Positions 4,575 to 29,406 of a stretch of 64,000 nucleotides of DNA are shown one piece after another; position 1 is the first letter of the stretch, and each line of letters opens with the position of its first letter. The DNA is from Bradymonadia bacterium. Lineage in GTDB: Bacteria; Myxococcota_A; Bradymonadia; UBA7976; UBA1532. The notes under the pieces were generated by a model, which saw only the letters and a list, made by a program, of their open reading frames with translations, was not told the DNA's origin and made no database searches. The stretch lies in the NCBI GenBank assembly GCA_049889275.1, contig JBMHDS010000085.1, forward strand, positions 153,470 to 217,469. Reading direction: 5' to 3'. The position numbers were made by a program, and so were the translations under genes.

Positions 4575-4576
4575 TC

Positions 4577-6082: not shown

Positions 6083-7593
6083 GTGATGAAGCGGTCGACA
6101 GCGACGAGCAGGCGATGCCGCCAACATGGTTGGATCGGGTCATTCGAAGGTACAAACGTCTGCTTTTCTTTGGTGGACTCACTTGGGTAGGCTTACTCCT
6201 CGCCGGCGGCATTGTACTCAGTAGCGTGGAGGCGAGAAATGGCCTCAACATCTTTGGACAAAAAGAGTGGCTCGCGGGCCAGCACACCGCCTTTCGCGTC
6301 AGCTTAGAGGATCTTCAATTTGGCACACGACGACCGCTTTCGAAGGTGAAGGTTCGCCTGAGCAACGTCAACATCCCGTACTCTGACGCTACGTTTGTCT
6401 TGACTGAACGCGTAGGAGACTACGTACAAGGCACCATTCCTGTGCCAAAGGAGCCCGGCAAATGGCAGGTGGAGTTTGAGACCGAAGACGTCGACACCCC
6501 CCTGTTTGCGCGGACTGAAGTCAGCGTTGTCAAAGGCGAGGAGACAGTTCTCGAGCACCCACTTACGTTATTTAAGAAAGGTGAACGACAAGAAGGACCA
6601 AGGTTACTGAATCTACGGCCCCTGCATGGTGAACTCCCAAGCGAGCTTGAGTCTAAGGTTGTCGTCTATTCATCGGTTGAGGGTACAGATCTAGCCGAGC
6701 CGATCGACTTGGATGTTCGCGAGGGAGCCAGCAAAAAGCCACTACCCACCCAGGTACGAGTGAAAGAGAATGGACTGCGTGTACTCGATATACAGTCCGT
6801 CCGTCCTGCCTGGGCCATTGAACTTTCAACGGCGAGCAGCCGTGTTGAGACCGCGTTGTACCCAAAACCGCATCAATTTGGGATAGAACTACCCAGTTTG
6901 ACCGATCAGACAGAAATTGAGGTCTCTGTGACGTCTATCGCAAAAACGGGACCGATCTTCTTTGACATCTGGTTCAACGGATATTGGCTGCTGACTCAAG
7001 CGGGGGTACTGGAAGACGGTGCTTATGCCGGCCGCCTTCGGCTGCCCCCTAGCCTGCCACAGGGTCAGCCAGTCTGGCTCCAGGTCTATAACAACACCTA
7101 CCAGCCTGGAAACAACCGCGCGGGACGTCACATCATAATCGGCGATAAGCAGGACCATCGTGTTCTCGAAACATTGGTGGCGATGTTTAGGGTTGAGAGA
7201 CCCGCGACTCGCCATTTCCTCAAGAACTTGGTGGGCGATATCGAGAATGCGGCTTTTCTACTGGGTCTGATCAAGTGGCCGATCCATGATCCGCCGCTCC
7301 TGGCAAACTCTGGGCTAACGGTTCGACAAACGGTGAGCACAGTGAAGGGCATGTGGCAGCGTCGCCTCGCTTTTGCGTTTATCGCGACGGCAATCGCTCT
7401 ATTGCTGGGCATTTTATTTTTGCTGAGACAAAATCAAAGAGACGTGACCCATGCTTGGAATCAACTCTCAGACAGCGCTGGTATCGAGGTTGGCACGAGA
7501 CGCCGTGCATGGCTCGATGCGGCCCTTCTCATCGTTGTTGTGATCTTGTTTTTGGGCGGACTGCTCGCCATCGTTAATTTCGTAAGATGGTAG
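6079..7593 (+). CDS. Hypothetical membrane-anchored protein (N-terminal TM, large extracytoplasmic domain, C-terminal TM pair)
   Basis: ATGA overlap with the preceding M23 peptidase gene (translational coupling); hydrophobic segments at both ends; no recognisable catalytic motif. Confidence 0.55.
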   Translation: MSDEAVDSDEQAMPPTWLDRVIRRYKRLLFFGGLTWVGLLLAGGIVLSSVEARNGLNIFGQKEWLAGQHTAFRVSLEDLQFGTRRPLSKVKVRLSNVNIPYSDATFVLTERVGDYVQGTIPVPKEPGKWQVEFETEDVDTPLFARTEVSVVKGEETVLEHPLTLFKKGERQEGPRLLNLRPLHGELPSELESKVVVYSSVEGTDLAEPIDLDVREGASKKPLPTQVRVKENGLRVLDIQSVRPAWAIELSTASSRVETALYPKPHQFGIELPSLTDQTEIEVSVTSIAKTGPIFFDIWFNGYWLLTQAGVLEDGAYAGRLRLPPSLPQGQPVWLQVYNNTYQPGNNRAGRHIIIGDKQDHRVLETLVAMFRVERPATRHFLKNLVGDIENAAFLLGLIKWPIHDPPLLANSGLTVRQTVSTVKGMWQRRLAFAFIATAIALLLGILFLLRQNQRDVTHAWNQLSDSAGIEVGTRRRAWLDAALLIVVVILFLGGLLAIVNFVRW

Positions 7594-7594
7594 T

Positions 7595-8278
7595 CTAGCG
7601 CTGCTTCGCGCTGAGGCACAGCACGTGCTCCGTGAGGGCGTTGATCCCCGCTTCCAAGAATCGAGGTGGTATATTCTCAACCTGATGGGAGTCCAGAACC
7701 TGGACATCGAACTCTGGTGAGAAAAGTTCTTTTACCGCCTGAACAGGAACAGAAAATGGCGGTCCTTCGGTCAGGTTTTGATCGTATTCGAGGGTGACCA
7801 TAAGGCCTCGACCACCTGGTTTAACCAAAGACTTCAGAACATTTACGTATGCCACGCGCATCGTTTGTGGAAGCGCAACGATGGCTGCGCGGTCAAAGAA
7901 CGCATCGAAAGTTCCAATCGATTGTGCGGTCAGCTCTAGAAAATCACCACAAATGAGTGTGAGGTCCCCATTCTCAAATAACTCATAGTCGCGCTGCACT
8001 GTCTGTTCACAATGCCAATCATGCTCATCGATAAACTTTTCGATCGCGCGACGCGACAACTCAACCCCCACCGTCGAGTGCCGTTCAGAAAGCCAGTTGA
8101 GATCGAGGGATTTACCGCACAGCGGTACGAGAACTCGACGCTTTTGCTCGGACGTGATGTCTGACCACCATTTGGTCAGATTCGGATTCACGGACTCTCG
8201 ATGAAAACCAATCCGATTAGATGCCCACCGCTCTTGCCAAAACTCTCTCTTCATCTCTCGTTCCTCGTTGAGCTCCAT
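7595..8278 (-). CDS. tpm: Thiopurine S-methyltransferase family (Tpm) SAM-dependent methyltransferase
   Basis: FWQERWASNRIGFH...NPNLTKWW...RVLVPLCGKSLDLNWL motifs characteristic of the TPMT family. Confidence 0.75.
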   Translation of the reverse strand: MELNEEREMKREFWQERWASNRIGFHRESVNPNLTKWWSDITSEQKRRVLVPLCGKSLDLNWLSERHSTVGVELSRRAIEKFIDEHDWHCEQTVQRDYELFENGDLTLICGDFLELTAQSIGTFDAFFDRAAIVALPQTMRVAYVNVLKSLVKPGGRGLMVTLEYDQNLTEGPPFSVPVQAVKELFSPEFDVQVLDSHQVENIPPRFLEAGINALTEHVLCLSAKQR

Positions 8279-14993: not shown

Positions 14994-15973
14994 CGAGCCC
15001 CCTCCCCCGCTGCAAGATGCTCTTCGAACTTGGCTGCAAGCGCCCGCCACCCATCATCAGCTCCCGTATCGAGGCGCCCAACACAAAGGACTGCCCCGGG
15101 TTTGAAGTCAAAGGCAGGCTGACCTTCCCACGTCCCAGCCTCGATCCAAGAGGGCCTTTGACTCGGCCGTTCGTAAGGTACGCGCTCGACCCGCTCTAGA
15201 GCTGGAAAGCACGCTCGCAAGTACGTCTCCACATCCTTCACGAGACAGCTCGATGAGAATGTTCCGGTCAACTGCCAAACAGCGCCAACGCGCTCTCCCT
15301 GCCAGTAATCAGGCTGAAGTCCGCGTGCCTGGATCGAGTTGACCGCGTCCAATAAACGTCCTCGTTCGTCAAACTCGAGACGTACAGAAATTTGCGTAGT
15401 CTCAAGCGGCCATAGCTGGAGCACGCATTCACTCAGAATGACGCCTCGCGCCCGCGGCGTCATCATGCATCGAGCGAGGTCAGGCCCCATCGAACGGCGC
15501 GGTGCTAAAGCACATCGCGTCAGCCCGGTAGCCGTCGCCGCCGTCAGCGACAAGACCATATCTCTCACAGCTCCATAGCGCGGTGAAGGGCGTGGGATGT
15601 ACTCACTTGACAGCATATCGTGAACGGTGCCACGCCGACATCCGTCGGATAACGGTCCAAGCGTGAACCCTTCATGGCGGGCCGCGGTCTCGACCGCCGC
15701 CACTGATGCCGCTGCCCCAACAACGGCGTAGCAACCCTTCCGGCTGATTCGAAGAATGCCATTCAGCGCAGAAATGTCGACCTGAATCACCGCTGGGTCA
15801 AAGTCGAAGGCCGGCGTCGAGACAACCTGCCAACGTTCAGTCGCTTGCTGAAGCCCAGTCAGTAATGAGACCGCCTCCTCATCTGATTGGACGGCGACCA
15901 CACGCGCGCCCTCACTGGAGACCAATGCGCTCCAACCGCCGAGTAAGGTGACCCTCTTCCACCGCTGAGCCAT
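14990..15973 (-). CDS. GlcE-like FAD-binding subunit (degenerate PCMH domain)
   Basis: GPDLARCMMTPRARGVILSECVLQLWP resembles the FAD-linked oxidase motif (GYDL..GSEGTLG..) but with substituted glycines; TAATG overlap with the upstream oxidase gene. Confidence 0.5.
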   Translation of the reverse strand: MAQRWKRVTLLGGWSALVSSEGARVVAVQSDEEAVSLLTGLQQATERWQVVSTPAFDFDPAVIQVDISALNGILRISRKGCYAVVGAAASVAAVETAARHEGFTLGPLSDGCRRGTVHDMLSSEYIPRPSPRYGAVRDMVLSLTAATATGLTRCALAPRRSMGPDLARCMMTPRARGVILSECVLQLWPLETTQISVRLEFDERGRLLDAVNSIQARGLQPDYWQGERVGAVWQLTGTFSSSCLVKDVETYLRACFPALERVERVPYERPSQRPSWIEAGTWEGQPAFDFKPGAVLCVGRLDTGADDGWRALAAKFEEHLAAGEGAR

Positions 15974-17496
15974 TAGCGCATGACCTTCCCTGGGTTCATG
16001 ATACCCACTGGGTCGAGGGTTGACTTCAATGCGCTAAAAACATCTACAGCAGAGCCGTTTGCTGCCGCCATGTGTGACATTCTCGATAGCCCAACGCCGT
16101 GATGATGCGCGATGGCGGCACCGGCCTGCAGTGCCGCATCGAGGCCAGCATGCCAAGCCGCACGGTATTTTGTGCGGATTTTTTCAACGCTAGGCGCGCT
16201 TCCTGCCATGGTAAAATAAATGGAACACCCACCTGGATACACGTGAGAGAAGTGGGCCATGACGACCACATAAGGGGCCATCGCCCGCCTGACAGTATCG
16301 TAAACTTGATAGACATTTTCCCAAGTGGTGGCCACCTCAAAGGTGTCGACGAAACAGCCTGCGCGATACAGTTTACTCTGCTTGAAGCTCACATCGTAAC
16401 GATGGTTCATCCAGGCCCGGGCTGGACCTTCTCCCTGGTCTTCTCCGCCGTGCTCACGAGCAATATGGGCGAGGCTATCTGCGGTCATTCGCGACTCTTC
16501 AATACTGCCCTCGGACACCGTGATCGCTAACACAGGCCCTCGCCAGGCTCTCACAAAGGCATTCGATAAGCGTGCCTGACCGAGCGCGAAACGAAGCGCC
16601 CCCTTCTTAGACGTCCCCCCTCGGGACGGCCCGCTGAGTAACCCTCTCAAACGACCCGAGAGCCCATTCATGGACTCGTTGGGATCGGCGCCAACCATCC
16701 GCGTATCGAGTGGGTCGTACATTCTGAGTACAGCTGGCCGTAAACCACCGATCATAGCATCTCGAAAGAATCCGAGACCCGACTGAATATCCGGCATCAG
16801 CCACGCTCTGAAGTGCCGGGCTGCTGGAAATTGGTGCAGACGCAAAGTCGCCGCGGTGATCACACCGAGTGTCCCCTCACTCCCGATGAAGACTTGGTTC
16901 CAATCCAAGCCATCAATTTGACTCGGCGTCTTTCGAACTAGCCCATCAGCTGTGACCACTTCGAGGCTCTCGACCATGTCTTCGATCTTACCGTAGCGCG
17001 AGCTGCATTGGCCCGCCGACCGAGTCGCAACCCAACCACCTACGGTCGAACACAAGATGCTCGACGGGAAATGACCCAAAGACAGGTCACGCCGATTTAG
17101 CCAACGTTCAAAACGTTCCCCGTTATATCCAGCTTCGACTTCTACAATGCGTTTCGTCGTGTCGAGTGCGCGAATGCGTCTGAGACCTTTCAAGTCAAGC
17201 ACCACTGAGCCCTTGGCCGGCACAGTACCGCCACAGACACCGCTGCCGGCGCCGAAGGGTACAATGGGTACGCGCTGATTGCGGCAAACATCGATCACCC
17301 GGGCCACCGACGCGACATCATTTGGATAAGCCACATACTGCGGCGGAGTGAGTTCATCACCGCACAGGCGGTCGAGTTGCATCTGTGGCCAGAGATCGCG
17401 GGCGTAGGCCCGTTTGGTCGCCTCACCGAGGCACACTTGTGCATCTGAGAGCGCGCCGACGAGGCCGCGATATAGTTCGGTGCTTGCTTCGGTCAT
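15973..17496 (-). CDS. FAD-linked oxidase, VAO/PCMH family (GlcD / D-lactate dehydrogenase / alkyl-DHAP synthase-like)
   Basis: PFGAGSG...GGTVP FAD-binding PCMH domain, GSEGTLGVIT, and C-terminal IAHHHGVG (a His-His-His variant of the usual SxEHGxG motif). Confidence 0.8.
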   Translation of the reverse strand: MTEASTELYRGLVGALSDAQVCLGEATKRAYARDLWPQMQLDRLCGDELTPPQYVAYPNDVASVARVIDVCRNQRVPIVPFGAGSGVCGGTVPAKGSVVLDLKGLRRIRALDTTKRIVEVEAGYNGERFERWLNRRDLSLGHFPSSILCSTVGGWVATRSAGQCSSRYGKIEDMVESLEVVTADGLVRKTPSQIDGLDWNQVFIGSEGTLGVITAATLRLHQFPAARHFRAWLMPDIQSGLGFFRDAMIGGLRPAVLRMYDPLDTRMVGADPNESMNGLSGRLRGLLSGPSRGGTSKKGALRFALGQARLSNAFVRAWRGPVLAITVSEGSIEESRMTADSLAHIAREHGGEDQGEGPARAWMNHRYDVSFKQSKLYRAGCFVDTFEVATTWENVYQVYDTVRRAMAPYVVVMAHFSHVYPGGCSIYFTMAGSAPSVEKIRTKYRAAWHAGLDAALQAGAAIAHHHGVGLSRMSHMAAANGSAVDVFSALKSTLDPVGIMNPGKVMR

Positions 17497-17658
17497 TGAT
17501 AGGGATTAACCGGTCAGGGCCCTCGGATCAAGGCATTCTTACCGTTGCGACTCGGCGTGGTTAAACCTTGACGCAGGCACGCTGTCCCTGGATGCGCGGA
17601 CGACAACTGTTGATGATATCTTGATGCATTAATCACCCAAGCTGCTTATGCTGCCAGT

Positions 17659-18366
17659 ATGAGCCGAAGTTTAATCATAGCAGCGCTGCTCTTCGCCTGG
17701 ACAGAGGGGGTCGCACGAGAGCCTCTCCGCAACGATAGAGACCCGATCCTAGATTCCGAACAAGCACCTGAAAACAAACGACTCAAGCGCCCAGACTCAG
17801 CGCCCAATGGGCTCATCGTTCGCAGCAGTGGCTTAATCTACTTCGGAGACGTCCACAGCTACCTCTTACCGGAGCAAAGTCGTCTACTATCGGGTGCTCG
17901 CCCGGGTCTCGGGTTTGGACTCGGCGCCCGTGTCGGGGCCCGTTTAGAGTTGGCTGTTGATGTGAGCCTGGGGTTAGGCAAGACCTTCGAGATCGACAGG
18001 CCTCAAGGGAAGAGCGCCTTTGATGTGCTCATCGATCCCCGCGTACACATCCATGTCGTAGAGCATGACCCGTTGAGTGTTTATGCGGGCCTTGGTGTCC
18101 TCTTTGGCCTCTTTGACCTTGAGAAGTCTGGCGTGAGCCAAGCTGGACTCGGCCCCAGTCTATCCGTTGGAGCGCTGCTCGCAATCGACCGTCACTTCGG
18201 CCTGTTTATTGATTTGAGCGGCTCTTATTTCTACGACGCGCTCGCCTATTCATATCGTGAAGATGAGACGGGCTTTGGACAATCAATGGAACGTCTGTCC
18301 AAGGAAGAAGGCGACTGGTTCAGAATATATCGCATGACCTTGGGATTACGTTTGGCTGGTTTTTAA
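17659..18366 (+). CDS. Small outer-membrane beta-barrel protein (hypothetical)
   Basis: Signal peptide; alternating hydrophobic pattern; C-terminal beta-signal ...LGLRLAGF ending in Phe. Confidence 0.5.
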   Translation: MSRSLIIAALLFAWTEGVAREPLRNDRDPILDSEQAPENKRLKRPDSAPNGLIVRSSGLIYFGDVHSYLLPEQSRLLSGARPGLGFGLGARVGARLELAVDVSLGLGKTFEIDRPQGKSAFDVLIDPRVHIHVVEHDPLSVYAGLGVLFGLFDLEKSGVSQAGLGPSLSVGALLAIDRHFGLFIDLSGSYFYDALAYSYREDETGFGQSMERLSKEEGDWFRIYRMTLGLRLAGF

Positions 18367-18749
18367 GTGGCAAAAAGTGGCCGTCGAAGAGGGAGCTGTC
18401 AGCGCGACAAGCTCCTTTCTTCGACGGAAGATATCCACCTTGGGCAGTGGCGAATACCAACGGAGGATTCGCTGTTCATCACAAAGCAGCGAGTGGGTAT
18501 TTTCACCTTCTCAGGCGTTGGGCAATACCCGCACATGGTACGAATCGAAAAGGTCTCACAATGTGTAAGACACGGAGACTCGTTCCATCTGCGCGTTTGC
18601 CCATCAGCGATGAAGCTCGGCGGTCGACATCCGAAGTGGGTGTCATCGCTAGATGGCCTCATTCGCGTTGAGGCCAATCTAAGCATTCATAGGCCACCGA
18701 TAGTCACCAACCCTGCGGGGCCACCGCCGGGCTGGTAACACGGCAGTCT

Positions 18750-19793
18750 TTAGCCAACCGCAGCCGTAGTGGTTTGTTCCACCGACTTGGAAGATGAGAA
18801 CATTTGACTGTACATCTTCACACTTTCGATAGACTCAAGCCCAAGAATCTCGGCCAGAGCGACGGGGTCTTCATTCTGTGCCCAGTACTGCAACGCAAAT
18901 GTATTGCGCAACAGCTGGGGCGAGGCTGTCACCCGCGCGAAGGTTGCGTGTTTGCGTACAACTCGCTGCACACCATTGATGCTCAAGCGACCACGCTCAC
19001 CCACGAACAGCGGCCAGTCACTCAGAGGCCCCATCGCATCGAAGGGCATCGGTGAGTTTGGCAGCGTCTTCAAAGCCGGTACCTGTGCCGGGTTCGGTGG
19101 TTCAATGCTGTCAGAAGGAGGCCAACCACCACTTGCAGGCAGCACGATCTCACCATCGGCCGGCAACTCGAGCAATCCGCGTTCACCAAGACTCCAAGCG
19201 AGTTTGCGTGCCGCTCGAGTCGGTAACGGCACCACCCGGGTGTACTTTGAACGCACCGTCAACTCACCGCTTCCGAAATCCACGTCGCCCACATCGAGGT
19301 CGACAAGTTCGCTGATACGCATACCGCTATCGAGTAACGCGTAGATAATTGCTTGGTCTCTAAAGCAGCCTCGACGGTCAACGTAGTTGAGCAGTTGGTG
19401 GACATCCTCTGCGGGCATTACACGCGGTGCACGCTCGGCTCTCTTCAGCTTTGCTTCATCGCGTATCGCGCTCACAGTCACGTCATCCACGAGCCCGTTC
19501 GCCCCTAACCAGACAACATAGCTTCGTGCGAAAGCCAGTCGGCGTAATACGGTTGATGGGCTACGGCCTTTTCGCTCCGAATCCCGCCGCCAGCCAGCGA
19601 CCACATTGGCCGAGAGCGCGAGTCCGTCGAATGTCTCACCTTCGCTGCGACGGTACCAGATGGTGAGGTCCTGCCAATCTGAACGGTAAGACCGTGTTGT
19701 CGATGCGCGTCGACCACGCAGTTCCAACCATCCAAGGAATTCATCGAAGCGCTCACACTCAGCAGGTGTCGCAAATCGGTTTGAAATCGTCAT
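18750..19793 (-). CDS. Tyrosine recombinase / phage-integrase family protein (recombinase A), with substituted catalytic histidines
   Basis: SAM-like N-terminal domain (TTRSYRSDW), box I GMRISEL, LLRNTFA and C-terminal ...VKMY; His positions of the canonical HxLRH...GH...Y pattern read Q/N and L. Starts 82 nt downstream of the flagellin A stop on the same strand. Confidence 0.8.
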   Translation of the reverse strand: MTISNRFATPAECERFDEFLGWLELRGRRASTTRSYRSDWQDLTIWYRRSEGETFDGLALSANVVAGWRRDSERKGRSPSTVLRRLAFARSYVVWLGANGLVDDVTVSAIRDEAKLKRAERAPRVMPAEDVHQLLNYVDRRGCFRDQAIIYALLDSGMRISELVDLDVGDVDFGSGELTVRSKYTRVVPLPTRAARKLAWSLGERGLLELPADGEIVLPASGGWPPSDSIEPPNPAQVPALKTLPNSPMPFDAMGPLSDWPLFVGERGRLSINGVQRVVRKHATFARVTASPQLLRNTFALQYWAQNEDPVALAEILGLESIESVKMYSQMFSSSKSVEQTTTAAVG

Positions 19794-19875
19794 GTCTATC
19801 TCCTGGCAAATTCTGAGGAAGCCGTAGGACTCAGCCTACGGCCGGTTTGATTCACTGCGACCGAATGTCACGCCT

Positions 19876-21288
19876 TTACTGAAGGAGAGACAGGGCCTGC
19901 TGTGGTACCTGGTTTGCCTGTGCCAGGATGGTCGTTGCAGCCTGTGTAAGGACCTGATTCTTAGCTAAGTTTGCTGACTCTGCAGCGAAATCAGCGTCCA
20001 AGATACGGCTTTTCGCTGCTGCTGCATTCTCTGAAACCGATGACAGGTTGTTGATCGTGCTCTGCATTCGGTTCTGCACAGCACCCAACTCGGCTCGGTC
20101 AGAAGCGATCTGTTGAATCGCGCGGTCTAAGATGAGCAAGGCATCATTAGCGCCCGGCCTCGTGGTGACATCGATGGTATCAACGGTGTTATTGGCTGTG
20201 ACGGCGACGATGGCATTTGGCACCATACCGATCTCGCCTTCACCACCCCCACTGACCTCAAACTGTGAGTCGGAGACAAGACGCAATCCGGCCCGAGTCA
20301 CGTCGCTATTGAGACCGGTAACAGCACCCGCGTTACCGACCACATTCACTTCAATGTTACGCCCATCGGCGGCCACCAATTCAATCCGTCCGTCATCGTC
20401 TCGGCGAGCCAATACACCCGTTTCGGTAAGGTCGGCGTTGATTGCATTGATGAACTTCTCATCGGCATCATCCTGCTGCACGCTGAATCCAGTAAAGATT
20501 CGACCGTTAATTTCCACATAGTTGGACTCGTCCAAGACACCACCGCCAATATCACCTGTCGCTGCACGCTCCGTCTCGGTCACGTACGCCGTCACCCCGG
20601 TGAACTCAGTGAAGTCATTGATCGCAGCTGCCTTAGCGATAGCCGATGCTGTTCGCTGAGTGGTACTGATTTGGTCGTCCACAAGCTGTGTTGCACGGAC
20701 CGTGACACCGTTGATTGTCAAAGCGTCATTGCCAATGCCATTCGCACTCACCGGACCCGACTGAAAGCTCGCGACTCGGCCAATGGTTTGGGAGCGGGCA
20801 TCTCGCACACGGACTCGGATACGCTCTTGGAAGTTCATACCGATATGGAAGAACTTATCATTGAAGGTGCCGTCTAGGAGTTTTTGCTGGTTAAACGTCG
20901 TCGAGTCACCGATACGCTGCAATTCGTCCGTGAGCTGCTTCACTTCGTTTTGAATCGCTTCACGATCGGCGGCCGTATTGACGTCCGATGCTGCCTGAAC
21001 TGCGAGCTCGCGCATTCTTTGTAGTACTGCAGTCGACTCTTGCAACGCACCCTCGGCGACCTGTACCAAGCTGATGGCGTCGTTGGCGTTCCGAATCGAC
21101 TGGTTCAACCCGCGCACCTGGCTGTTGAACCTCTCACTGATGGCCAGACCTGCCGCATCATCAGCGGCGGAGTTGACTCGCAAACCGCTCGACAAGCGCT
21201 GGAAGCTTGTACCGAGTCTCTTGCTGCTACCGAGCAAGTTGCGCTGTGCATTGTTGGCGAAAGAATTCGTATTAATGAAAAGGCCCAT
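19876..21288 (-). CDS. fliC: Flagellin (flagellin A)
   Basis: Canonical D0/D1 N-terminus (INTNSFANNAQRNL...LSSGLRVNSAADDAAGLAISERF) and C-terminus (LAKNQVLTQAATTILAQANQVPQQALSLLQ); variable central region; GGAGGA RBS 7 nt upstream. Confidence 0.95.
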   Translation of the reverse strand: MGLFINTNSFANNAQRNLLGSSKRLGTSFQRLSSGLRVNSAADDAAGLAISERFNSQVRGLNQSIRNANDAISLVQVAEGALQESTAVLQRMRELAVQAASDVNTAADREAIQNEVKQLTDELQRIGDSTTFNQQKLLDGTFNDKFFHIGMNFQERIRVRVRDARSQTIGRVASFQSGPVSANGIGNDALTINGVTVRATQLVDDQISTTQRTASAIAKAAAINDFTEFTGVTAYVTETERAATGDIGGGVLDESNYVEINGRIFTGFSVQQDDADEKFINAINADLTETGVLARRDDDGRIELVAADGRNIEVNVVGNAGAVTGLNSDVTRAGLRLVSDSQFEVSGGGEGEIGMVPNAIVAVTANNTVDTIDVTTRPGANDALLILDRAIQQIASDRAELGAVQNRMQSTINNLSSVSENAAAAKSRILDADFAAESANLAKNQVLTQAATTILAQANQVPQQALSLLQ

Positions 21289-21650
21289 GATTTGTCCTCC
21301 GTGACAAATTACGCATCACATCCATGCGATCCGTATCAAGTTGGCCGAGCGATGACCTTCATCACTCGAACCGGTTAAAATGGCGGCGCCCTCAACTGCC
21401 CTCGAGCACGTCGCCTAAAAAATTTCTTCATCGATAAGTCGCACCTCGCCTGTTTGTGCTGACGCAAGCGCCGCACGGGGCCAGAACGACTGGTCTAAAC
21501 TGTTTTTTTCTGCCCGGATTTTCGGGTAGAAGCAGAGCAAGCGTCTCGGTCGTTCAACTCGCCCCCCGGTCAACTTAAGTGGGGGGTCAACGAGATGACT
21601 TCAGCGAGCCGCAGCTCCTTGAGTAAGCCGTAACTTACCCAATTGGATCG

Positions 21651-21950
21651 CTACACCTTAGTGTCGTACCAAGTTGGGCGACGTCCGCTTTGCTTCGCGG
21701 CGATAGCACTCCAAAAATTATCTCCGGTCTGCCCTGTCACCTGCGCAAGACGTACATCCAAGTCTTTGTCTGTATCGCGCAACAGTGCTGCAACCCGTTG
21801 TGTAAACTGTGTTATGGTCTTGAGCATACTCTCGTTACGACCGATTCCCGCGGCGTTAAGTGCCAATGAAATCTCATCGATTTCATGTCGGTTTTTCCCT
21901 GCCATATCGCACCTCCTTGTGCACGCTGTAGCGCCGCTCACGCGGCCCAC
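21651..21950 (-). CDS. Hypothetical small protein (uncertain)
   Basis: ORF only; no recognisable motif; possible shorter start at MAGKNRHE. Confidence 0.25.
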   Translation of the reverse strand: MGRVSGATACTRRCDMAGKNRHEIDEISLALNAAGIGRNESMLKTITQFTQRVAALLRDTDKDLDVRLAQVTGQTGDNFWSAIAAKQSGRRPTWYDTKV

Positions 21951-22202
21951 ATATTTTGGCTAGACGGGTTGCGTTGAACTCACGCTTACCGTGCGAACGT
22001 CGCCCATCCATATCGCCTATTTTTAGTTCATTCGAGCAGCTAGATTCGTGACCACCATCGCTTGAAGCAAGGATGGTGGTTTGTCCGAACCAAGCCATCG
22101 TCCCACTGAACCCAAGTGCCTACTCGCACTCAACTCGGACTGGTCAGCTCAAGTTGCTGCCTGCCCTGCTTCAGTTTTCCTGTTCGAGTTTCCATGTCTT
22201 TT

Positions 22203-23063
22203 TCAAGTGCCGAACATGTAAAACTCTCCTCGGTTCCAAAAGCGCTGATGACAGCGCTTAAGGCCCCAAATTGTGACGCTCATGGCGTCGTAATTTCGCT
22301 GTTTTTCGAGCTCGATTAGACCACACACCACGCGTCGGTTGCGCGGCGGTCTCCGCCTTCTAAAGCCGACGGGCAGCCCAGACCATTTCACCCCAACAAG
22401 ACCGGCGTCAACGTCGCCTGCCGCACAGGCTACCGGCTCCTCGGCATTCACCTCTGAAGACCTCCTGAATGCGTCAGTCCGCCTGTCTAGGTTCGACTCG
22501 ACACAGTCATTGCGACTCGGGCCACCACGTGTGGGCGAAGCCAATTCGAGCACGCTCTGCCCTTCGTTTGCGCCCGGCGACTGTTCGACACCGGGTCTCG
22601 CGCTATCGTGATGGGCATTCAGGCTCACCACTGGAGCGAGCATCGTCTCTCCTCGTAGCGCGCCCACGCTATCGCCAGCCGGTAGCTGCCTCCCGCTCGA
22701 CCCCGTATCGTCATCAGCAGTCGCTGTGACGTGCTCGCGGTCAATGTTTGGAAACTTGATAACTCTTGCCTCGGGGCGGACCTCCGAACCGGTACGCTTC
22801 GATTGAACCCGCCCGTGCAATGCATCGTGAGCCGTCTGTCCAACGCTCATATGCACATTTGTCGGCTTCGATTCGGAGGCGCCGCCGCGGAGCGTGACAC
22901 CCTGGACTGAGACGGCCGCCCACTGGTTCTCCCACTCAGCGCGCGAGAACTCACCATGTCCAAGAGCTGTGAACCAGCTCACCGATGGCAGAGCACCAAG
23001 CGCCCCATCTAAAGGCGTCATGTTACTCGAATCGCGTTTCAGTGTTTGATTAGAAGTGTACAC
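22203..23063 (-). CDS. Hypothetical protein, predicted disordered (uncertain whether coding)
   Basis: Longest ORF in the 1.4-kb region between flagellin A and recombinase B; low-complexity composition; overlapping alternative-frame ORFs on the other strand. Confidence 0.25.
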   Translation of the reverse strand: MYTSNQTLKRDSSNMTPLDGALGALPSVSWFTALGHGEFSRAEWENQWAAVSVQGVTLRGGASESKPTNVHMSVGQTAHDALHGRVQSKRTGSEVRPEARVIKFPNIDREHVTATADDDTGSSGRQLPAGDSVGALRGETMLAPVVSLNAHHDSARPGVEQSPGANEGQSVLELASPTRGGPSRNDCVESNLDRRTDAFRRSSEVNAEEPVACAAGDVDAGLVGVKWSGLPVGFRRRRPPRNRRVVCGLIELEKQRNYDAMSVTIWGLKRCHQRFWNRGEFYMFGT

Positions 23064-23364
23064 CGTCTATCTCCAACACGCCCCGTTTGTTACATCGGAG
23101 CACTACATACTTACGCTCATACAGCCCACGCTGTAGTCACAATCTCTACGTTATCCCCAAGACCCATTCGTCAGACGTCCAATCCTTGGGGTTTCACTCG
23201 AACTCACCGTACACTCAAATGGGTGACACGAGAGTTCGACTCAATGTTTTCAACCTGTCCTATCGTATCCTGAATACTGAGGTCGCACCTCGCCTCTTGG
23301 CTGCTGCAACAACCTGAACTCATGGACACATCTACTTGATATCAACTGCGGTATCGTACCGAGC

Positions 23365-24333
23365 TTAATGCCCTTCGCCGCCGCCTACGACCATCGCTGG
23401 CCCCTGAGCGGTGAATCGGTCATCACCCACTGCCTCATTCATCTCATCACTGTTCAGATACAAGCGAGTTGTCTCCAAGCTCTCATGGCCAAGCATGTCT
23501 GCGAGTGCCACGACGTCGCCATCAGCAGCGAGAAAACTACTCGCGAAAGTATGGCGCAGCGTGCTCGGTGAGACCTTGACCTTCGCGAATCCACAGTACT
23601 TCCGAACAATTCGCTGAATCGCATTCGGTGTCAAAGGTCCACGTTCACCAAGGAACACAAGTCCTGTAGAACGGCCGCGATAAATCAGGTACTGACGGAG
23701 CTTCCGCTTTGCATGACCGCTGATGGTCAAACGTCGGATACGCGTCCCGTGCGGCTTGTAGTCATGCACTAAGATGGTGCAACGATTACCGTTGTTAATC
23801 ACCTGGCTCATGTCTAACTCAGCCAGCTCACTGACTCTCAACCCTGTACCCAGAAGCGTGTAAATGATCGCCTGGTCTCTGGGTGATGCCCTGTGTTCGA
23901 CAGAACGAAGGAATCGCTTTAACTCGATGTCAGACAAACCCTTTGGTCGGCGCGGCGCTTGAGGCACAGGCTTCACTTTTCGAATCGACTCAGCCAAATC
24001 GCTGTTGACCAATCCGCGGGTCGCAGCCCAGCCCACATACCGCTTTGTGAATACAAGCTTCCGATTAATGGTTGCTGGCCGCATGCCCTGGTCGACAAGA
24101 AAGGCAACGTAAGCCTTGACTTGTTCGACACTGACAAGACCTAGGGTAAACGGCTGGCCGCTGTATTCAACGCACCACTCATTGAGTCCAATCCAATCAC
24201 TGCGATACGAACCGATGGTTTTTGGAGCGCGTCCGCGTCCCCGCAACTCATTGACGAACCCAGCAAATAGAGCCTTTTCATCTTGATGCTCACCTGTCGT
24301 TATCGCCAGGCTGTTTTTAGAATCCTGTTTCAC
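23365..24333 (-). CDS. Tyrosine recombinase / phage-integrase family protein (recombinase B)
   Basis: GTG start with AAGGAG RBS; TIGSYRSDW N-terminal SAM-like domain, GLRVSEL, TLRHTFA, LGHESLETTRLY catalytic region; paralog of recombinase A; starts 132 nt after the flagellin B stop. Confidence 0.85.
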   Translation of the reverse strand: MKQDSKNSLAITTGEHQDEKALFAGFVNELRGRGRAPKTIGSYRSDWIGLNEWCVEYSGQPFTLGLVSVEQVKAYVAFLVDQGMRPATINRKLVFTKRYVGWAATRGLVNSDLAESIRKVKPVPQAPRRPKGLSDIELKRFLRSVEHRASPRDQAIIYTLLGTGLRVSELAELDMSQVINNGNRCTILVHDYKPHGTRIRRLTISGHAKRKLRQYLIYRGRSTGLVFLGERGPLTPNAIQRIVRKYCGFAKVKVSPSTLRHTFASSFLAADGDVVALADMLGHESLETTRLYLNSDEMNEAVGDDRFTAQGPAMVVGGGEGH

Positions 24334-24465
24334 TTTGTATCTCCTTTGTCACTGACACTTTGCTAGGGCGCACACACCTGTCCTGTTCGACACGGCTCAA
24401 GCGAGCTGTCGTCGGAGAGCGCGCGCGCTCAGTTTTGCTTTAGTCGTTCACTTTGGTGCTAAGGC

Positions 24466-25887
24466 TTAGCCACCCTGTAGGAGACTCAGAACCTGCTGTG
24501 GACCAGCATTTGCCTGAGACAAGATTGAGATACCTGCTTGTTGCAATACGTTATTTTTCGCGAGGTCGGCTGACTCAGCGGCAAAGTCAGCGTCGCGAAT
24601 TCGACTTCGCGCCTGCTCTGCTGATTCGAGTACACCACCCAAGTTAGAAATCGTCGACTGCATCCGATTTGACACAGCACCCAATTCGGCACGGTCACTG
24701 GTGAGCTGAGCGATGGCTCGGTCTAGCCTGAGAATCGCTTCATTGGCTGTGAAGCGCGTCAATACATCCATGCTCGCCACGTTCTCACTTGTGTTCACAC
24801 CAACGAAGTCATTGTCCGCAAAGCCTACAAATGACTCGTTATTGCCGCTCAATTGGTACTGCGCCTCGCTGTACATATTGATCTGCGCGGTCTGTACTGT
24901 CGATGCACCTAGACCGGTGATCAAGCCGGCATTACCCGATGTTTGGATCTCAATGTTTCGACCGTCCTCAGCCTCGAGCGTGAGATGCCCACGCCTGTCG
25001 AGTGAAGCGGTGACACCGGTGATCGGAGACTCTGCATTAATGGCTCGGACGAGTGTCTGTGTCGCATCATCGGACTGAACATCGAACCCGACGATCGAGA
25101 CCCCGTTAATCACCACGAAGTCAGTCGCATTGAGGGTACCGCCCGTAACACCTGCGGCCGCAACAAACTCAGTTGGCATCGCTCGCGCAGTGACACCATG
25201 AAACTTGGTGGTATCGTTAATCGCTTTCGCTTTGGCAACGGCCGAGGCGGTGGAGAAACTCGTCGACAGCGTATCATCCGCGGGTACAGTCGCCCGAACG
25301 GTGATGTTGTTGATAAGTAAATCTCCCGCCGCCAACGGGTCGGTACTGACGACGTTCCCTGTCTTGACAGCTTGCCGCGCCAGCACATCCGACCGGCTAT
25401 CTCGGATACCCACTTGGACCGTCTGTCTCGCAAACGCCCCCACTTGGAAGAAACTATTTACGAAAGAGCCGTCGAGAAGCTTGGTACCGTTAAAGGATGT
25501 GTTCTCGCCGATGCGTGTCAGCTCTTCTTTGAGCTCCTCAATCTCGTCGTTGATTGCCGCTCGGTCCCGCGCATTATTAATGTCGGAAGCTGATTGAACA
25601 GCAAGTTCGCGCATTCTTTGTAGGATGTTTGTTGATTCGCTGAGAGCTGATTCCGCCAATTGAGCAAGTGAAATTGCATCGTTCGCATTGCGAAGAGCCT
25701 GCCCAAGACCACGAATCTCGCTCGTGAAACGCTCGCTGATTGCGAGGCCAGCCGCGTCGTCACCTGCGTTGGTGATGCGAAGGCCGCTGGAGAGTCGTGC
25801 AAAGTTACGGCCGAGTCGGCTCTGGCTCTGCATCAAGTTGCGCTGTGCGTTCATCGACGCAACGTTTGTGTTTACGTAAAGTCCCAT
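24466..25887 (-). CDS. fliC: Flagellin (flagellin B)
   Basis: Start set at MGLYVNTN (GGGAGGA RBS); N-terminal NAQRNL...LSSGLRITNAGDDAAGLAISERF and C-terminal LAKNNVLQQAGISILSQANAGPQQVLSLLQGG; central domain unrelated to flagellin A. Confidence 0.95.
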   Translation of the reverse strand: MGLYVNTNVASMNAQRNLMQSQSRLGRNFARLSSGLRITNAGDDAAGLAISERFTSEIRGLGQALRNANDAISLAQLAESALSESTNILQRMRELAVQSASDINNARDRAAINDEIEELKEELTRIGENTSFNGTKLLDGSFVNSFFQVGAFARQTVQVGIRDSRSDVLARQAVKTGNVVSTDPLAAGDLLINNITVRATVPADDTLSTSFSTASAVAKAKAINDTTKFHGVTARAMPTEFVAAAGVTGGTLNATDFVVINGVSIVGFDVQSDDATQTLVRAINAESPITGVTASLDRRGHLTLEAEDGRNIEIQTSGNAGLITGLGASTVQTAQINMYSEAQYQLSGNNESFVGFADNDFVGVNTSENVASMDVLTRFTANEAILRLDRAIAQLTSDRAELGAVSNRMQSTISNLGGVLESAEQARSRIRDADFAAESADLAKNNVLQQAGISILSQANAGPQQVLSLLQGG

Positions 25888-26350
25888 CTTTATCCTCCCT
25901 GGATAATCCCGCTCGAACCATCGAGTCGGGTAGGCGTCCATGCCTGTTTCGTGGAATTAACCGGTTGGCCCTTGCCCACCGTATGTAACTGTTTTCGATG
26001 AGGAATCTGCCGTCTTGGCCTGTTCCGTCTCGCTTCACCCTAGTCATCGTCATACGCGCCGCCAACTTGAGAAAAAAGTGCATCATTATGTGTTTTTTTT
26101 TCGTGATACCGATCCAACTAGCTTATCCGGCCAGTTTAAGTACCCCCTGATATAGTTATGGTGCGAGCCCTCACCCCTAAAAGAATCAAGCCTAGTAAAA
26201 TCAAGCACTTAAAGAACACTCAAAACAGCGGAACGGACATCAAAATTATCCACGTGCGACCATGATAGTGGTAAATATTGGCGATAAATAACTGCATTGT
26301 ATAACGCAGATAATTTTTCGGATGACTTTTTATGCGGCCAGTATGCGGGC

Positions 26351-26379
26351 TTCAAAATCAAGTTGCTTGCCCTTATAAT
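26351..26379 (+). promoter_or_regulatory. Sigma-70-like promoter candidate (TTCAAA-17-TATAAT)
   Basis: -35 TTCAAA at 26351-26356, 17-nt spacer, perfect -10 TATAAT at 26374-26379, about 36 nt upstream of the ORF starting at 26415; lies in an AT-rich tract. Confidence 0.35.
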
Positions 26380-26414
26380 TGCACCACATATCAATCTTGG
26401 CGGGCGGGTGAACG

Positions 26415-26768
26415 ATGCGACTAAGCACAATCTTAAAATGGGGACTCGTCGCGATCGGTGTGTTCGTTGCTGTTCAATTCGCAAGCGTCTATGTGACGCG
26501 CACGCAGCTCAGCCATATCATTGAGACCGTTGCGATCGAAGCACGTCGCAAACAGATGACTCGGTCGGAGATTAAGACGGCGCTCTTAAACGAGATGAAT
26601 CAGAACAACACAGAGCTACCGATGCAATTGCAGATCACGAGCGAGGGCATCGGCGAACGCAAACGACCACTTAGAATCACGCTCGACTACGAACACGTCG
26701 TGGATTTGAAGGTGATGGAAGTGACAGTATCAATGTCAGCGAGCGGGGATTCGAAACCCGCTCTCTAA
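26415..26768 (+). CDS. Small membrane protein (hypothetical)
   Basis: N-terminal TM helix (ILKWGLVAIGVFVAVQFA); 117 aa. Confidence 0.45.
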   Translation: MRLSTILKWGLVAIGVFVAVQFASVYVTRTQLSHIIETVAIEARRKQMTRSEIKTALLNEMNQNNTELPMQLQITSEGIGERKRPLRITLDYEHVVDLKVMEVTVSMSASGDSKPAL

Positions 26769-26772
26769 GAGA

Positions 26773-29406
26773 TTAAAGGCCTTGCGTCAGCAGGTCCGGC
26801 ACAGATGCGATGACGCGTTCGAGCGCTTCAACGTCCTTACCACCCCCCTGCGCGAAATCGGGTCGACCACCGCCCCGTCCATCCAATTGGCCAGTAATCG
26901 CTTTGACGAGTTGACCTGCGTGGAATCGGGGGTCGCCCTTAAGCTGGGGACCGGTAGCAGCAATGATCACAGCAGCACCGTCTAGCTTTGCCCCGAGCGC
27001 GATCACCGCGCCCGGTGCTTTATCCCGAAGACGGTCGACCAGAGCCGCGAGGGTCGGCCGTGCATCGACCTCGACTGTGCGCGCGACCACCGGTACACCA
27101 TCGACTTGGCTTGCTTCGGCTAGCCACGCATCAATGTCCTGTCCTCCCCCGCTCTTGCGCGCCTTGTCCAGCGCCTTGCGCAGCTGTTTCAATTCGTCGA
27201 CCAATCCGGCGACACGCTCAACAAGATTGCCCGGGTCGGTCTTTAAAACGTCCGATGCCGCGCGAAGGGTCTGGCGCTCATCGATCGACCGAGCATCGGC
27301 AGCGTGGCCCACCACCGCTTCAATCCGTCTGACACCGGCTGCAACCCCCGTCTCTGAGGTCACGCGAAATGAACCGATTTCACCCGTTGCTTTGACGTGA
27401 TTGCCACCACAGAGTTCGAACGACATCGGACCCGCTTTGACGGTTCGGACCGTATCACCGTACTTTTCACCGAAGAGGGCAACAGCGCCTTGGTCGCGAG
27501 CCTCATCAATTGACACACCTTCGTGAATCTCGACGGTGTGATTGTCACGAATCTGCTGGTTAACGATATGCTCAATACGCAAGAGCTGCTCGTCGCTCAG
27601 CGGGGCGTTATGACTGTAGTCAAAACGCAATCGATCTGGTTCAACCACGGAGCCCTTCTGCTCCACGTGCTCTCCAACCACATCTTGCAGCGCACTGTGC
27701 ATGAGATGCGTCGCTGTGTGGTGGATGGTCTTCATCGCTCGTCGGGCCGTGTCGACATGGACCAAAACAGGCCCATCAACATGCCCCTCGAGCGAACCGT
27801 CCGTCAAAACTCCAAAGTGGTGTACGATACCGGTCAACTTTTGAACGTCGTCTATCCGTACACGCCAGTGGTCTGTCGTCAGCGTACCGAAATCCGCAAC
27901 CTCACCACCACTCTCCGCATACAGGGGCGTCTCTGCGAGCACAAACTCGACGCGCTCGCCTTTCTGCCGATAACGCATGATGTGAGTGGATAACTCAGTC
28001 AAGCCATATCGGGCGAAGCCATCACCGCCACCTTCACGCACGATGTGCCAATCGCCACCGTCCTGATCATAAAACTTAGCGGCCTGTTTAGACTTTGCTT
28101 TCTGGCGCTTCATCTCACGGTCAAAGCCATCAGTGTCCACAATAAAGCCATGATCAGCCGCCTCGATCTCTGTGAGTCCAACGGGAAATCCGAAGGTATC
28201 GTAGAGTTCAAAGGCTTCCTGGCCTGTGATCAACTTGTCGTCTTGCTTCTGCGCCATCATGGCATGGATCCGACCCATCCCTCGGTCGATGGTACGGAAG
28301 AAGCGCGCTTCCTCGTCTTTGATCGCTGTCGCGGTGTTGTCCAAGATATGAGCGGGTAAATCGTATACGCCATCAAAGACTTCAGCGATCGTGGGCATAA
28401 GCGTGGATAAGAAGGGTCCATCAAAACCTAAACGTCGCCCGTGACGGACCGCTCGTCTGAGAATTCTTCGAAGTACATACCCGCGTCCTTCATTAGAAAA
28501 CTGTCCACCCTCGCTGACCACAAAGGTGAGCGTGCGTAGGTGGTCGGCGATCACCTGCATATCGACTCGGCGGTCATCGTTGGTCCGGTCAGCGCCCGAC
28601 AACCGTGCAATGTGTCCTATGATCGGCTGGAAAATATCCGTATCAAAAACATTCGTCTTGCCCTGGAGGATCATTGTCATGCGCTCAAGACCCATGCCGG
28701 TGTCCACCGATTGGAGCGCCAATGGGGTCAACTCGCCGGCGTCGTCGCGGTTCGACTGCATGAACACATTATTCCAGAATTCCATATAGCGGTCGCCCTC
28801 GCCGCCCATGTAATCTTCTGGTCCTGTGCCAGCCTCTGGGCCGAGGTCGTAGAAGAGCTCTGTGCACGGTCCACAAGGCCCTACAGGGCCCATCGACCAA
28901 AAATTTTCGTCATCACCTTGAGCGAGGTCGCCAAACCGATAAATCCTCTGCTCCGGAAACCGTATTTCATCGCGCCAGATTCCGAAGGCCTCTTCGTCAT
29001 CTTTGTAAATGGAGACGTAGAGTCGTTCCGGATCCAGCCCGAAGACGTTGACCGATACATCCCAGGCCATCTTGATAGCATCTCGTTTGTAATAGTCACC
29101 GAAAGACCAGTTCCCCAACATCTCGAAGAGGGTGAGATGCCGGCCATTCTTGCCCACCGCATCGAGGTCGTTATGCTTACCGCCGGCTCGTACACATTTT
29201 TGAACAGAGCAAGCGCGCGTGTAGTCGCGTTTCTCTTCGCCGAGCAGTAGAGACTTGAATTGATTCATACCCGCATTGCAGAATAGTAAGGTGGGGTCAT
29301 CCCTCGGAATCAGGGGAGACCCTTCGACTTCCTTGTGCGGCAGGGTGGTATTGTCTGCAAAGTAATCGAGAAACTTTCTTCGAATGCTTTTATGAGTCCA
29401 TGTCAT
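26773..29406 (-). CDS. alaS: Alanine--tRNA ligase
   Basis: DPTLLFCNAGMNQFK, VRAGGKHNDLD, and the HxxxH/CxxxH editing domain; 877 aa. Confidence 0.97.
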   Translation of the reverse strand: MTWTHKSIRRKFLDYFADNTTLPHKEVEGSPLIPRDDPTLLFCNAGMNQFKSLLLGEEKRDYTRACSVQKCVRAGGKHNDLDAVGKNGRHLTLFEMLGNWSFGDYYKRDAIKMAWDVSVNVFGLDPERLYVSIYKDDEEAFGIWRDEIRFPEQRIYRFGDLAQGDDENFWSMGPVGPCGPCTELFYDLGPEAGTGPEDYMGGEGDRYMEFWNNVFMQSNRDDAGELTPLALQSVDTGMGLERMTMILQGKTNVFDTDIFQPIIGHIARLSGADRTNDDRRVDMQVIADHLRTLTFVVSEGGQFSNEGRGYVLRRILRRAVRHGRRLGFDGPFLSTLMPTIAEVFDGVYDLPAHILDNTATAIKDEEARFFRTIDRGMGRIHAMMAQKQDDKLITGQEAFELYDTFGFPVGLTEIEAADHGFIVDTDGFDREMKRQKAKSKQAAKFYDQDGGDWHIVREGGGDGFARYGLTELSTHIMRYRQKGERVEFVLAETPLYAESGGEVADFGTLTTDHWRVRIDDVQKLTGIVHHFGVLTDGSLEGHVDGPVLVHVDTARRAMKTIHHTATHLMHSALQDVVGEHVEQKGSVVEPDRLRFDYSHNAPLSDEQLLRIEHIVNQQIRDNHTVEIHEGVSIDEARDQGAVALFGEKYGDTVRTVKAGPMSFELCGGNHVKATGEIGSFRVTSETGVAAGVRRIEAVVGHAADARSIDERQTLRAASDVLKTDPGNLVERVAGLVDELKQLRKALDKARKSGGGQDIDAWLAEASQVDGVPVVARTVEVDARPTLAALVDRLRDKAPGAVIALGAKLDGAAVIIAATGPQLKGDPRFHAGQLVKAITGQLDGRGGGRPDFAQGGGKDVEALERVIASVPDLLTQGL

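Follow-up and report, generated by a model that had tools for sequence, protein, structure and literature searches.

Does a Xer-like tyrosine recombinase that is encoded within a tandem array of flagellin genes still recombine DNA? The question arises from a 64,000-nucleotide stretch of DNA from a Bradymonadia bacterium (assembly GCA_049889275.1, contig JBMHDS010000085.1, positions 153,470 to 217,469 of the forward strand), hereafter the window, in which two Xer-like paralogs, Recombinase A and Recombinase B (here RecA and RecB), lie among flagellin genes. An initial annotation, made by eye, had reported that RecA lacks both catalytic histidines and had proposed that it may be impaired and act as a DNA-binding regulatory or architectural protein, or else rely on its partner. 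We favor the reading, with a probability of about 0.45, that RecA and RecB would be a domesticated, recombinase-derived pair binding DNA at the flagellin array in a regulatory or architectural role. This reading was reached because the catalytic positions have drifted across the family, most orthologs lack the hairpin lysine, one lacks the tyrosine, synteny is deep, and the loci compared yielded neither recombination sites nor rearrangements.

RecA belongs to the tyrosine recombinase superfamily, matching PF00589 with E=7.9e-15 (55.5 bits, cut-off 27.1) and, more weakly, the N-terminal SAM-like core-binding domain. Alignment by phmmer to the solved XerD (1a0p) and archaeal XerA (4a8e), together with profile residue mapping, gave the signature R159-E162-(K183)-Q293-R296-L319-Y328. 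Arg I (R159, codon 19317-19319), Glu I (E162), Arg II (R296) and the nucleophile Tyr (Y328, codon 18810-18812) are in place, and the two arginines and the tyrosine had been read correctly by eye. RecA thus shares Arg II and Tyr with canonical tyrosine recombinases. Gln (Q293, codon 18915-18917) occupies the His II position, N297 replaces the second His of the HxLRH motif, and Leu (L319, codon 18837-18839) stands at the His III position. RecA SPQLLRNTFA was aligned with SPHVLRHAFA of XerD and TPHQLRHSFA of XerA, and in the His III region ILGLESIESVKMY was aligned with LLGHSDLSTTQIY (XerD) and LLGHSNLSTTQIY (XerA). The same register was reproduced by a profile of 50 orthologs. Profile alignment with residue mapping, the check proposed alongside the original claim, therefore leaves both substitutions standing, and no realignment puts a His at either position. 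With Q293 and L319, and with K183 uncertain as the hairpin lysine, RecA lacks a canonical active site.

The predicted structure agrees with this assignment. An AlphaFold2 (AF2) model of RecA (mean confidence score, pLDDT, 89.2) matched XerA, IntI4, lambda Int, Cre and XerH in Foldseek at a probability of 1.00, as expected of the two-domain fold of core-binding (CB) and catalytic (CAT) domains; the resemblance to Cre and Xer folds that the initial annotation had proposed to look for is thus present. K183 falls within RSKYTR, the turn predicted to connect hairpin strands 177-181 and 185-189. RecA also carries a Pro-rich insertion of about 55 aa that alignment places in neither RecB nor canonical Xer proteins, and residues 204-260 split every PDB sequence match of RecA in two. 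Among the 50 orthologs this insertion matches the remainder of the protein in conservation (mean majority fraction 0.70, five invariant columns), and it is modeled mostly as ordered coil (pLDDT 75-85). The top PDB sequence match of RecA was chain 14 of 9i5v (401 aa), which is labeled 'Ribosome-associated translation inhibitor RaiA'. In alignment its sequence (SPHVLRHSFA ... LLGHDSLSTT) is that of a canonical recombinase of the XerC/D type, so that the chain is mislabeled or else a ribosome structure contains a recombinase-like protein.

Loss of the two histidines is weak evidence when taken alone, because these are the most substitution-tolerant catalytic positions in Cre. Saturation mutagenesis of that enzyme revealed a strict requirement for only the Tyr and the β-hairpin Lys (PMC2943603). 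At Cre His289 all substitutions but five still permit recombination in vivo, with H289Q close to wild type; the equivalent H305Q change in Flp is severely defective (PMC2943603). Cre W315L retains weak activity, R173K is active in vivo and inactive in vitro, and Arg is found at the Lys position in ~3.8% of natural tyrosine recombinases (PMC2943603). Judged by residue identity alone (R, E, K183, Q, R, L, Y), RecA could still be a weak enzyme. The proposal of an impaired, DNA-binding paralog is therefore retained on other grounds than the two-histidine argument first given for it: the loss is true but mild, and the family and its genomic context add weight.

A word-indexed search returned about 55 near-full-length clusters of RecA orthologs (43-96% identity), all from metagenomes or metagenome-assembled genomes (MAGs) of Myxococcota, and 50 of these were used for alignment. 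None of the 50 carries the canonical catalytic set. Arg I is split between Arg (25) and Lys (25). The His II position is Gln in 38 orthologs, His in 10 and Arg in two, and the His III position is Leu in 25, His in 14, Asn in nine and Gln in two. Lys occurs anywhere in the hairpin turn in only 10 of the 50, and eight have neither Lys nor Arg there. Arg II is present in 50/50, Tyr in 49 (Leu in the other one) and Glu I in 96%. Ranked by column entropy among 323 core columns, Arg I stands at 161, His II at 151, His III at 200 and the hairpin turn at 221-302; Arg II shows no variation, and Tyr and Glu I show very little. By Fitch parsimony on a neighbor-joining tree of the orthologs, the median column requires a minimum of six independent changes; Arg I requires at least four, His II three, His III six and the hairpin-turn columns 9-21. 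Variation at Arg I, the hairpin Lys, His II and His III is no more restricted than at an average column.

The remainder of the protein is constrained. Across the 50 orthologs 41 columns are invariant, and comparison of RecA with a 74%-identity relative (L021) gave a nonsynonymous divergence (dN) of 0.22, reported alone because synonymous sites (dS) were saturated. Strong purifying selection acts on the fold, the core-binding domain at the N-terminus, the Pro-rich insertion and the residues Arg II, Tyr and Glu I. Such constraint, coupled with drifting catalytic columns, indicates that selection in this clade is not preserving canonical positions other than Arg II, Tyr and Glu I. The family thus displays a recombinase fold whose catalytic residues are no longer under constraint, as in proteins of the MrpR/YopR and SroF type. 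A family-profile search of 1.84 billion proteins provided an outgroup of the 132 nearest 50%-identity representatives, 103 of which have the full R-E-H-R-H-H-Y signature and a GKGxK hairpin, marking the RecA substitutions as unusual and beyond chance.

Individual members depart further from the canonical set. One subgroup, K-H-R-L-Y with hairpin NPWAR, combines Lys at Arg I and Leu at His III with a turn free of Lys and Arg, and ortholog P0047 has a scrambled stretch around Arg I. P0049 (L018 9986-10999) has Leu at the Tyr position, Asp-Leu in place of the Gly-His of His III and Lys at Arg I, in an intact open reading frame (ORF); its lineage has a single recombinase in the flagellin array. 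The more distant 291-aa relative P0169 reads K-E-Q-R-N-L-Y and retains the GKG hairpin Lys. It equals RecA at His II, position 297 and His III, with Lys instead at Arg I, so the Q/N/L combination may have arisen more than once.

Genomic context is the second line of evidence. The minus strand of the window reads alaS, fla2, RecB, three ORFs, fla1 and RecA, followed by the convergent orf235 and glcD/E/F-like genes. A scan of MAGs, with one genome per species, gave 17 loci (16 informative), every one from a seawater or lake MAG of uncultured Myxococcota, Bradymonadia or 'Nannocystaceae'. In 16/16 informative loci a RecA ortholog lies behind the last flagellin of a tandem array and on the same strand. 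By consensus the genes run alaS, flagellin, RecB, one to four flagellins, RecA, (a CheY-like receiver), orf235 and glcD, and gene order is kept across lineages down to 39% identity. The number of flagellins bracketed by RecB and RecA changes between lineages, and all flagellin genes of the array share one orientation. The gap between flagellin and RecA is 13-47 nt in L007-L009 and L011-L019, leaving no room for a separate RecA promoter in those lineages; over the related loci it is 13-96 nt, with a GGAGG Shine-Dalgarno sequence.

RecA and RecB occur together in the 13 loci with enough sequence. In L018 and L020, the two loci that diverge most, one recombinase lies between flagellins and resembles RecA and RecB to about the same degree, which suggests an old capture followed by duplication. 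P0097 and P0102, the closest relatives outside the clade, are not beside flagellins, making the flagellin linkage specific to the RecA clade. RecA and RecB are thus a small, vertically inherited clade built into the flagellin array of uncultured planktonic Myxococcota (Bradymonadia-type MAGs). Such a linkage is not described in the literature searched on flagellin, tyrosine recombinases or Xer, and Myxococcota or Bradymonadia.

Recombination sites and alternative arrangements were both sought. No convincing direct or inverted repeats were found around the array (window positions 17000-26000), where the best inverted repeat (30 nt, 77%) has an arm within the coding sequence of RecB, and six related loci had none in common. 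A k-mer search for shared non-coding motifs in 16 loci recovered nothing beyond the Shine-Dalgarno hairpin GTCAnGGAGGAC and an element resembling GCCGATGA, and pairwise footprinting gave leader and promoter blocks with no repeated dyad site. No rearranged variants were seen: 16 metagenome contigs of the P0003 lineage (10 displayed) and three contigs or places of the window lineage are all collinear and show the same order. Rare events at short degenerate sites would go undetected by the repeat and contig tests, and assembled metagenomes represent the prevailing arrangement, in which infrequent rearrangements would not be seen. Inverted repeats bracketing a segment, as in the invertible promoters of the FimB/FimE and RecV type, were not observed, nor were the direct att repeats and variable presence of an excisable islet of the flnA type; the order from alaS to glcD is the same in the informative loci. 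The lack of repeats, the collinear contigs and the single flagellin orientation together argue against an inversion switch and an excisable islet.

Two individual repeats were rejected as recombination sites. A 17-nt direct repeat, GTCGCACCTCGCCT(G/C)TT, lies at 21438-21454 and 23282-23298, both intergenic, and brackets a 1.84-kb fast-evolving insert; the fla1-proximal copy is kept in L021 but the pair is not. A 322-nt inverted repeat in L005 (6442-6763/7189-7510, 89%) is lineage-specific.

From the sequences and their arrangement we infer that RecA and RecB may have a conserved function independent of canonical strand cleavage and religation, for which a sequence-specific DNA-binding role at the array would be the most economical mechanism. 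With the C-shaped clamp formed by the CB and CAT domains and a phosphate-binding pocket (R/K, R, Q/H, Y), the pair could grip specific DNA within the flagellin array or close to it. They might then act as regulatory or architectural factors whose dose would be coupled to flagellin transcription, and might set which flagellin genes are expressed or give feedback. A regulator role would parallel that of the MrpR/YopR repressor and perhaps that of SroF. A fuller version of this proposal, in which a non-recombining RecA/RecB DNA-binding module is co-transcribed with flagellin, possibly under CsrA-type translational control, and governs which flagellins are made, is more tentative than the pair's DNA-binding role itself.

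Several observations weigh against domestication. Invariance of Arg II, retention of Tyr in 49/50 orthologs, and the restriction of Arg I to R/K and of His II to Q/H/R would also fit a working, unusual active site. RecA of the window has K183 in the hairpin turn, Lys or Arg is found in that turn in 42/50 orthologs (Arg there being natural in the ~3.8% of enzymes mentioned above), and Gln at His II is the nearly wild-type substitution in Cre (PMC2943603). A DNA-binding site was not found either, the k-mer search of the 16 loci having returned Shine-Dalgarno hairpins only, and rare rearrangements would be missed in assemblies that represent the majority arrangement.

The main rival is therefore that RecA and RecB are still active as slow, non-canonical recombinases (R/K, Q/H, R, Y, the general acid being Arg or some other residue) that infrequently rearrange the flagellin array by cassette copy-number change, deletion and re-integration, or flagellin switching. 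We consider this less likely than domestication. It would account for the retention of Arg II, Tyr and Glu I, for the substitution of Arg I and His II only by residues able to contact phosphate, and for the one to four flagellins that separate RecB from RecA in different lineages. The activities of Cre H289Q, R173K and W315L (PMC2943603) lend it plausibility, as does recombinase-controlled flagellar variation in other bacteria (PMC3378880, PMC5386303). Against it stand the lack of conserved, repeated candidate sites in the window or the six related loci, the single arrangement among the contigs of both lineages, and the co-orientation of the flagellin genes, which makes a simple inversion switch unlikely. 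Moreover, the K-H-R-L-Y/NPWAR subgroup has no Lys or Arg in the hairpin turn, where Lys is strictly required in Cre, one ortholog has no Tyr, and the catalytic columns evolve like average columns.

RecB bears on the second alternative. It is 32% identical to RecA, lacks a ~50-residue segment of it, and matches PF00589 at 81.4 bits (cut-off 27.1). Its residues are R166, E169, S257 at the His II position, R260, H261, H283 at His III and Y292, in agreement with the earlier reading of Ser at the first His and retention of the second. Among RecB orthologs His III and Tyr are kept throughout and the C-terminal tail P-V-A-L-x-G-G is conserved, while Arg I is R/K, His II is S/G/Q/H and the hairpin Lys is not conserved. 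RecA might be the non-catalytic subunit of a RecA-RecB hetero-oligomer in which RecB is catalytic, much as XerC and XerD divide labor; the co-occurrence of the two genes, the His III and Tyr of RecB and a tail that could dock on a neighbor would all suit such an arrangement. Xer-type active sites are assembled in cis, however, so a partner cannot supply missing residues, and the basal lineages L018 and L020 have one recombinase in the array. Since RecB is degenerate at the same positions, the suggested reliance of RecA on its partner is not borne out, and we regard this model as improbable.

It is very improbable that RecA is an ordinary prophage or island integrase, or a housekeeping XerC/XerD, that lies beside flagellin by chance. 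The Pfam name 'Phage_integrase', the XerC/XerD labels of relatives in the sources and the best NCBIfam matches (XerC, XerA, XerD) point that way, but the scores fall far below the cut-offs: 103.4 against 335.15 for XerC (TIGR02224), 98 against 220 for XerA and 92.4 against 329.6 for XerD (TIGR02225). The flanks are alaS and glcDEF-like housekeeping genes in an order kept down to 39% identity, the locus has no att repeats and no phage or defense genes, and the relatives P0097 and P0102 lie away from flagellins, the linkage being clade-specific. PADLOC found no match for RecA, RecB, orf286, orf99 or orf235. Housekeeping flanks, the lack of phage and defense genes and the low XerC, XerD and IntI scores thus indicate neither a mobile-element integrase nor a housekeeping Xer pair. 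Least credible of all is a decaying, functionless gene, for which the lost canonical residues and the scrambled P0047 might speak, since ORFs of ~347 aa are intact in >50 clusters, with 41 invariant columns, a dN of 0.22 at saturated dS and a conserved insertion.

Comparison with known systems places the pair between several of them. XerC, XerD and XerA share with RecA and RecB the core-binding and catalytic domains and the lack of an arm-binding domain. Xer proteins are also the best sequence and fold matches of RecA (XerA 4a8e and 5hxy, XerD 1a0p), and two paralogs in one genome region recall XerC plus XerD. Unlike Xer proteins, the RecA family replaces His II, His III, the hairpin Lys and often Arg I, and RecA carries the ~55-aa insertion. 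Whereas Xer acts at dif, the RecA and RecB genes are embedded in a flagellin array that revealed no dif-like site.

In MrpR/YopR the Tyr and Lys are retained and the Arg and His residues are missing; the protein shows no recombination and represses by binding DNA (PMC10516654). RecA likewise has a tyrosine recombinase fold with several catalytic residues replaced and Tyr retained, and the YopR and SroF structures (8bj6, 9rd5) were among its Foldseek matches; SroF is considered here solely as a DNA-bound recombinase-fold structure. MrpR/YopR and SroF are phage lysis-lysogeny regulators, whereas RecA and RecB are chromosomal, vertically inherited, paired and linked to flagellin. MrpR has lost both arginines but RecA keeps Arg II and R/K at Arg I. 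The relationship of RecA to these regulators is detectable in the fold and not in the sequence, and DNA binding or repression by RecA is predicted only.

A tyrosine recombinase beside an array of genes in the same direction also recalls integrons, and IntI4 (2a3v) was among the top fold matches. In an alignment to an approximate IntI1 sequence, the RecA insertion occupies the same topological place as the extra domain of IntI, which is a lead only. An integron integrase was rejected: TIGR02249 scored 39.4 bits against 265, and no attC-like repeats or repeated hairpin sites were seen. IntI is fully canonical, unlike RecA; the flagellin genes have their own leaders, unlike promoterless integron cassettes; and, instead of diverging from the array, the RecA and RecB genes lie within it and downstream of it. 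Salmonella Hin, C. difficile RecV and the E. coli H17 flnA integrase resemble RecA and RecB in being recombinases linked to flagellar or flagellin genes. Excision of the E. coli flnA region by the H17 tyrosine recombinase controls flagellar variation (PMC3378880), and the C. difficile RecV flagellar switch is likewise recombinase-controlled (PMC5386303). Phase-variation systems have inverted repeats around a promoter or att repeats around an islet, neither of which is conserved at the RecA/RecB locus. Their enzymes have complete active sites, unlike RecA and RecB, whose array shows no alternative arrangement.

The phage repressor MrpR/YopR is the sole bacterial protein of tyrosine recombinase fold documented here as having given up catalysis, and SroF may be another. 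If the favored reading is true, RecA and RecB would represent a chromosomal, non-phage, vertically inherited domestication of a tyrosine recombinase into a regulator tied to flagellin expression. The natural series of active-site variants (RQRLY, RQRNY, KQRHY, KHRLY and Tyr-less) would allow residues needed for DNA binding to be compared with those needed for chemistry. Were the proteins active instead, they would widen the limits of tyrosine recombinase catalysis (Lys at Arg I, no hairpin Lys) and offer a new way of rearranging flagellin arrays. Automated labels such as XerC, XerD or integrase on these genes would wrongly signal a mobile element or dimer resolution.

Table 1. Coordinates of features at the flagellin array of the window.
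Feature	Position	Strand	Basis and remarks
Recombinase A (RecA), Xer-like tyrosine-recombinase-fold protein	18750..19793	minus	347 aa; ORF, PF00589, residue mapping, AF2, Foldseek
β2-β3 hairpin turn RSKYTR of RecA, codons R181-R186	19236..19253	minus	site of the general-acid Lys in canonical enzymes; aligns to the GKGNKER hairpin of XerD-like proteins
Clade-specific Pro-rich insertion of RecA, ~55 aa (residues 204-260, ERGLLELP..LPASGGWPP..SPMPF..W)	19014..19184	minus	between the helix after the β2-β3 hairpin and β4
Recombinase B (RecB), paralog of RecA without the insertion	23365..24333	minus	322 aa; R166-E169-S257-R260-H283-Y292
fla1, flagellin directly upstream of RecA	19876..21288	minus	470 aa; PF00669 and PF00700, NCBIfam flagellin models
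fla1-RecA spacer, 82 nt	19794..19875	minus	hairpin GCCGTAGG-CTGAGT-CCTACGGC at 19821-19842, Shine-Dalgarno-like AGGAG; sequence and hairpin listing
fla1 leader/promoter	21289..21460	minus	GGA-in-hairpin motifs CGCATGGATGTGATGCG and TTGTCACGGAGGACAA, the latter overlapping the Shine-Dalgarno sequence
Blocks conserved with the 74%-identity relative: CTCGAGGGCAGTTGAG and AGGCGAGGTGCGAC	21391-21406 and 21438-21451, within 21289..21460	minus	pairwise footprinting
orf99, orf71, orf286, fast-evolving lineage-specific ORFs in the RecB-to-fla1 gap	21651..23063	minus	no Pfam match
fla2, first flagellin of the array, directly upstream of RecB	24466..25941	minus	491 aa; Pfam; ortholog group distinct from fla1
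alaS, alanyl-tRNA synthetase, one flank of the array	26773..29406	minus	Pfam tRNA-synt_2c, E=8.6e-175; same position in L012, L013, L020
orf235, convergent neighbor, signal peptide and β-barrel-like C-terminus	17659..18366	plus	adjoins RecA in 14 loci
glcD-like FAD oxidase, other flank of the array	15973-17496		Pfam; glcD/E/F-like genes follow orf235

Non-coding elements of the array were also compared. A promoter and terminator scan yielded the hairpin between fla1 and RecA as its one informative feature, and a search of 17000-27000 against Rfam gave no match. The 16-nt block CTCGAGGGCAGTTGAG, about 100 nt upstream of fla1, is identical in L021-L026 amid diverged sequence and has partial dyad symmetry; it is a candidate promoter or operator element. 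All flagellin leaders in the window (21289-21345 and 25942-26010, minus strand) and in L005-L020 carry GGA motifs in hairpin loops. One motif lies ~45 nt upstream and is CGCATGGATGCG-like, and the other embeds the Shine-Dalgarno sequence (GTCAnGGAGGAC or GTTTCCAAGGAGGAAAC). These hairpins look like CsrA binding sites, as in the CsrA-FliW control of flagellin translation. The RecB leaders of L005 and L006 bear the same pair of GGA motifs as the flagellin leaders.

The gap between RecB and fla1 evolves rapidly. Pfam matches were found for none of orf99, orf71 and orf286, which are 28-36% identical to their L021 counterparts while RecA is 74% identical. The corresponding gap spans 0.4-3.6 kb in other lineages. 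In L008 the RecB-to-flagellin gap holds a 54-bp unit repeated 24.9 times with 89% matches (4377-5727), and in L005 it holds 33-, 99- and 51-bp arrays (6152-6518, 7641-7962); the RecB-to-fla1 gap of the window contains no tandem repeats. The arrays were not retained as binding-site arrays, being absent from the window and having periods that are multiples of three, and are more likely repeats in a fast-evolving gene.

Small genes differ between loci at either end of RecA. In most relatives a gene for a CheY-like single-domain response regulator, of either orientation, separates RecA from orf235 (for example L005 11039-11545). The window (18367-18749) and L004 lack this gene, the interval in the window being 384 nt long and devoid of a convincing ORF. 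In L012 (9603-10001), L018 (9797-9983) and L020 (9761-9989) a small ORF of ~60-130 aa separates the recombinase gene from the last flagellin.

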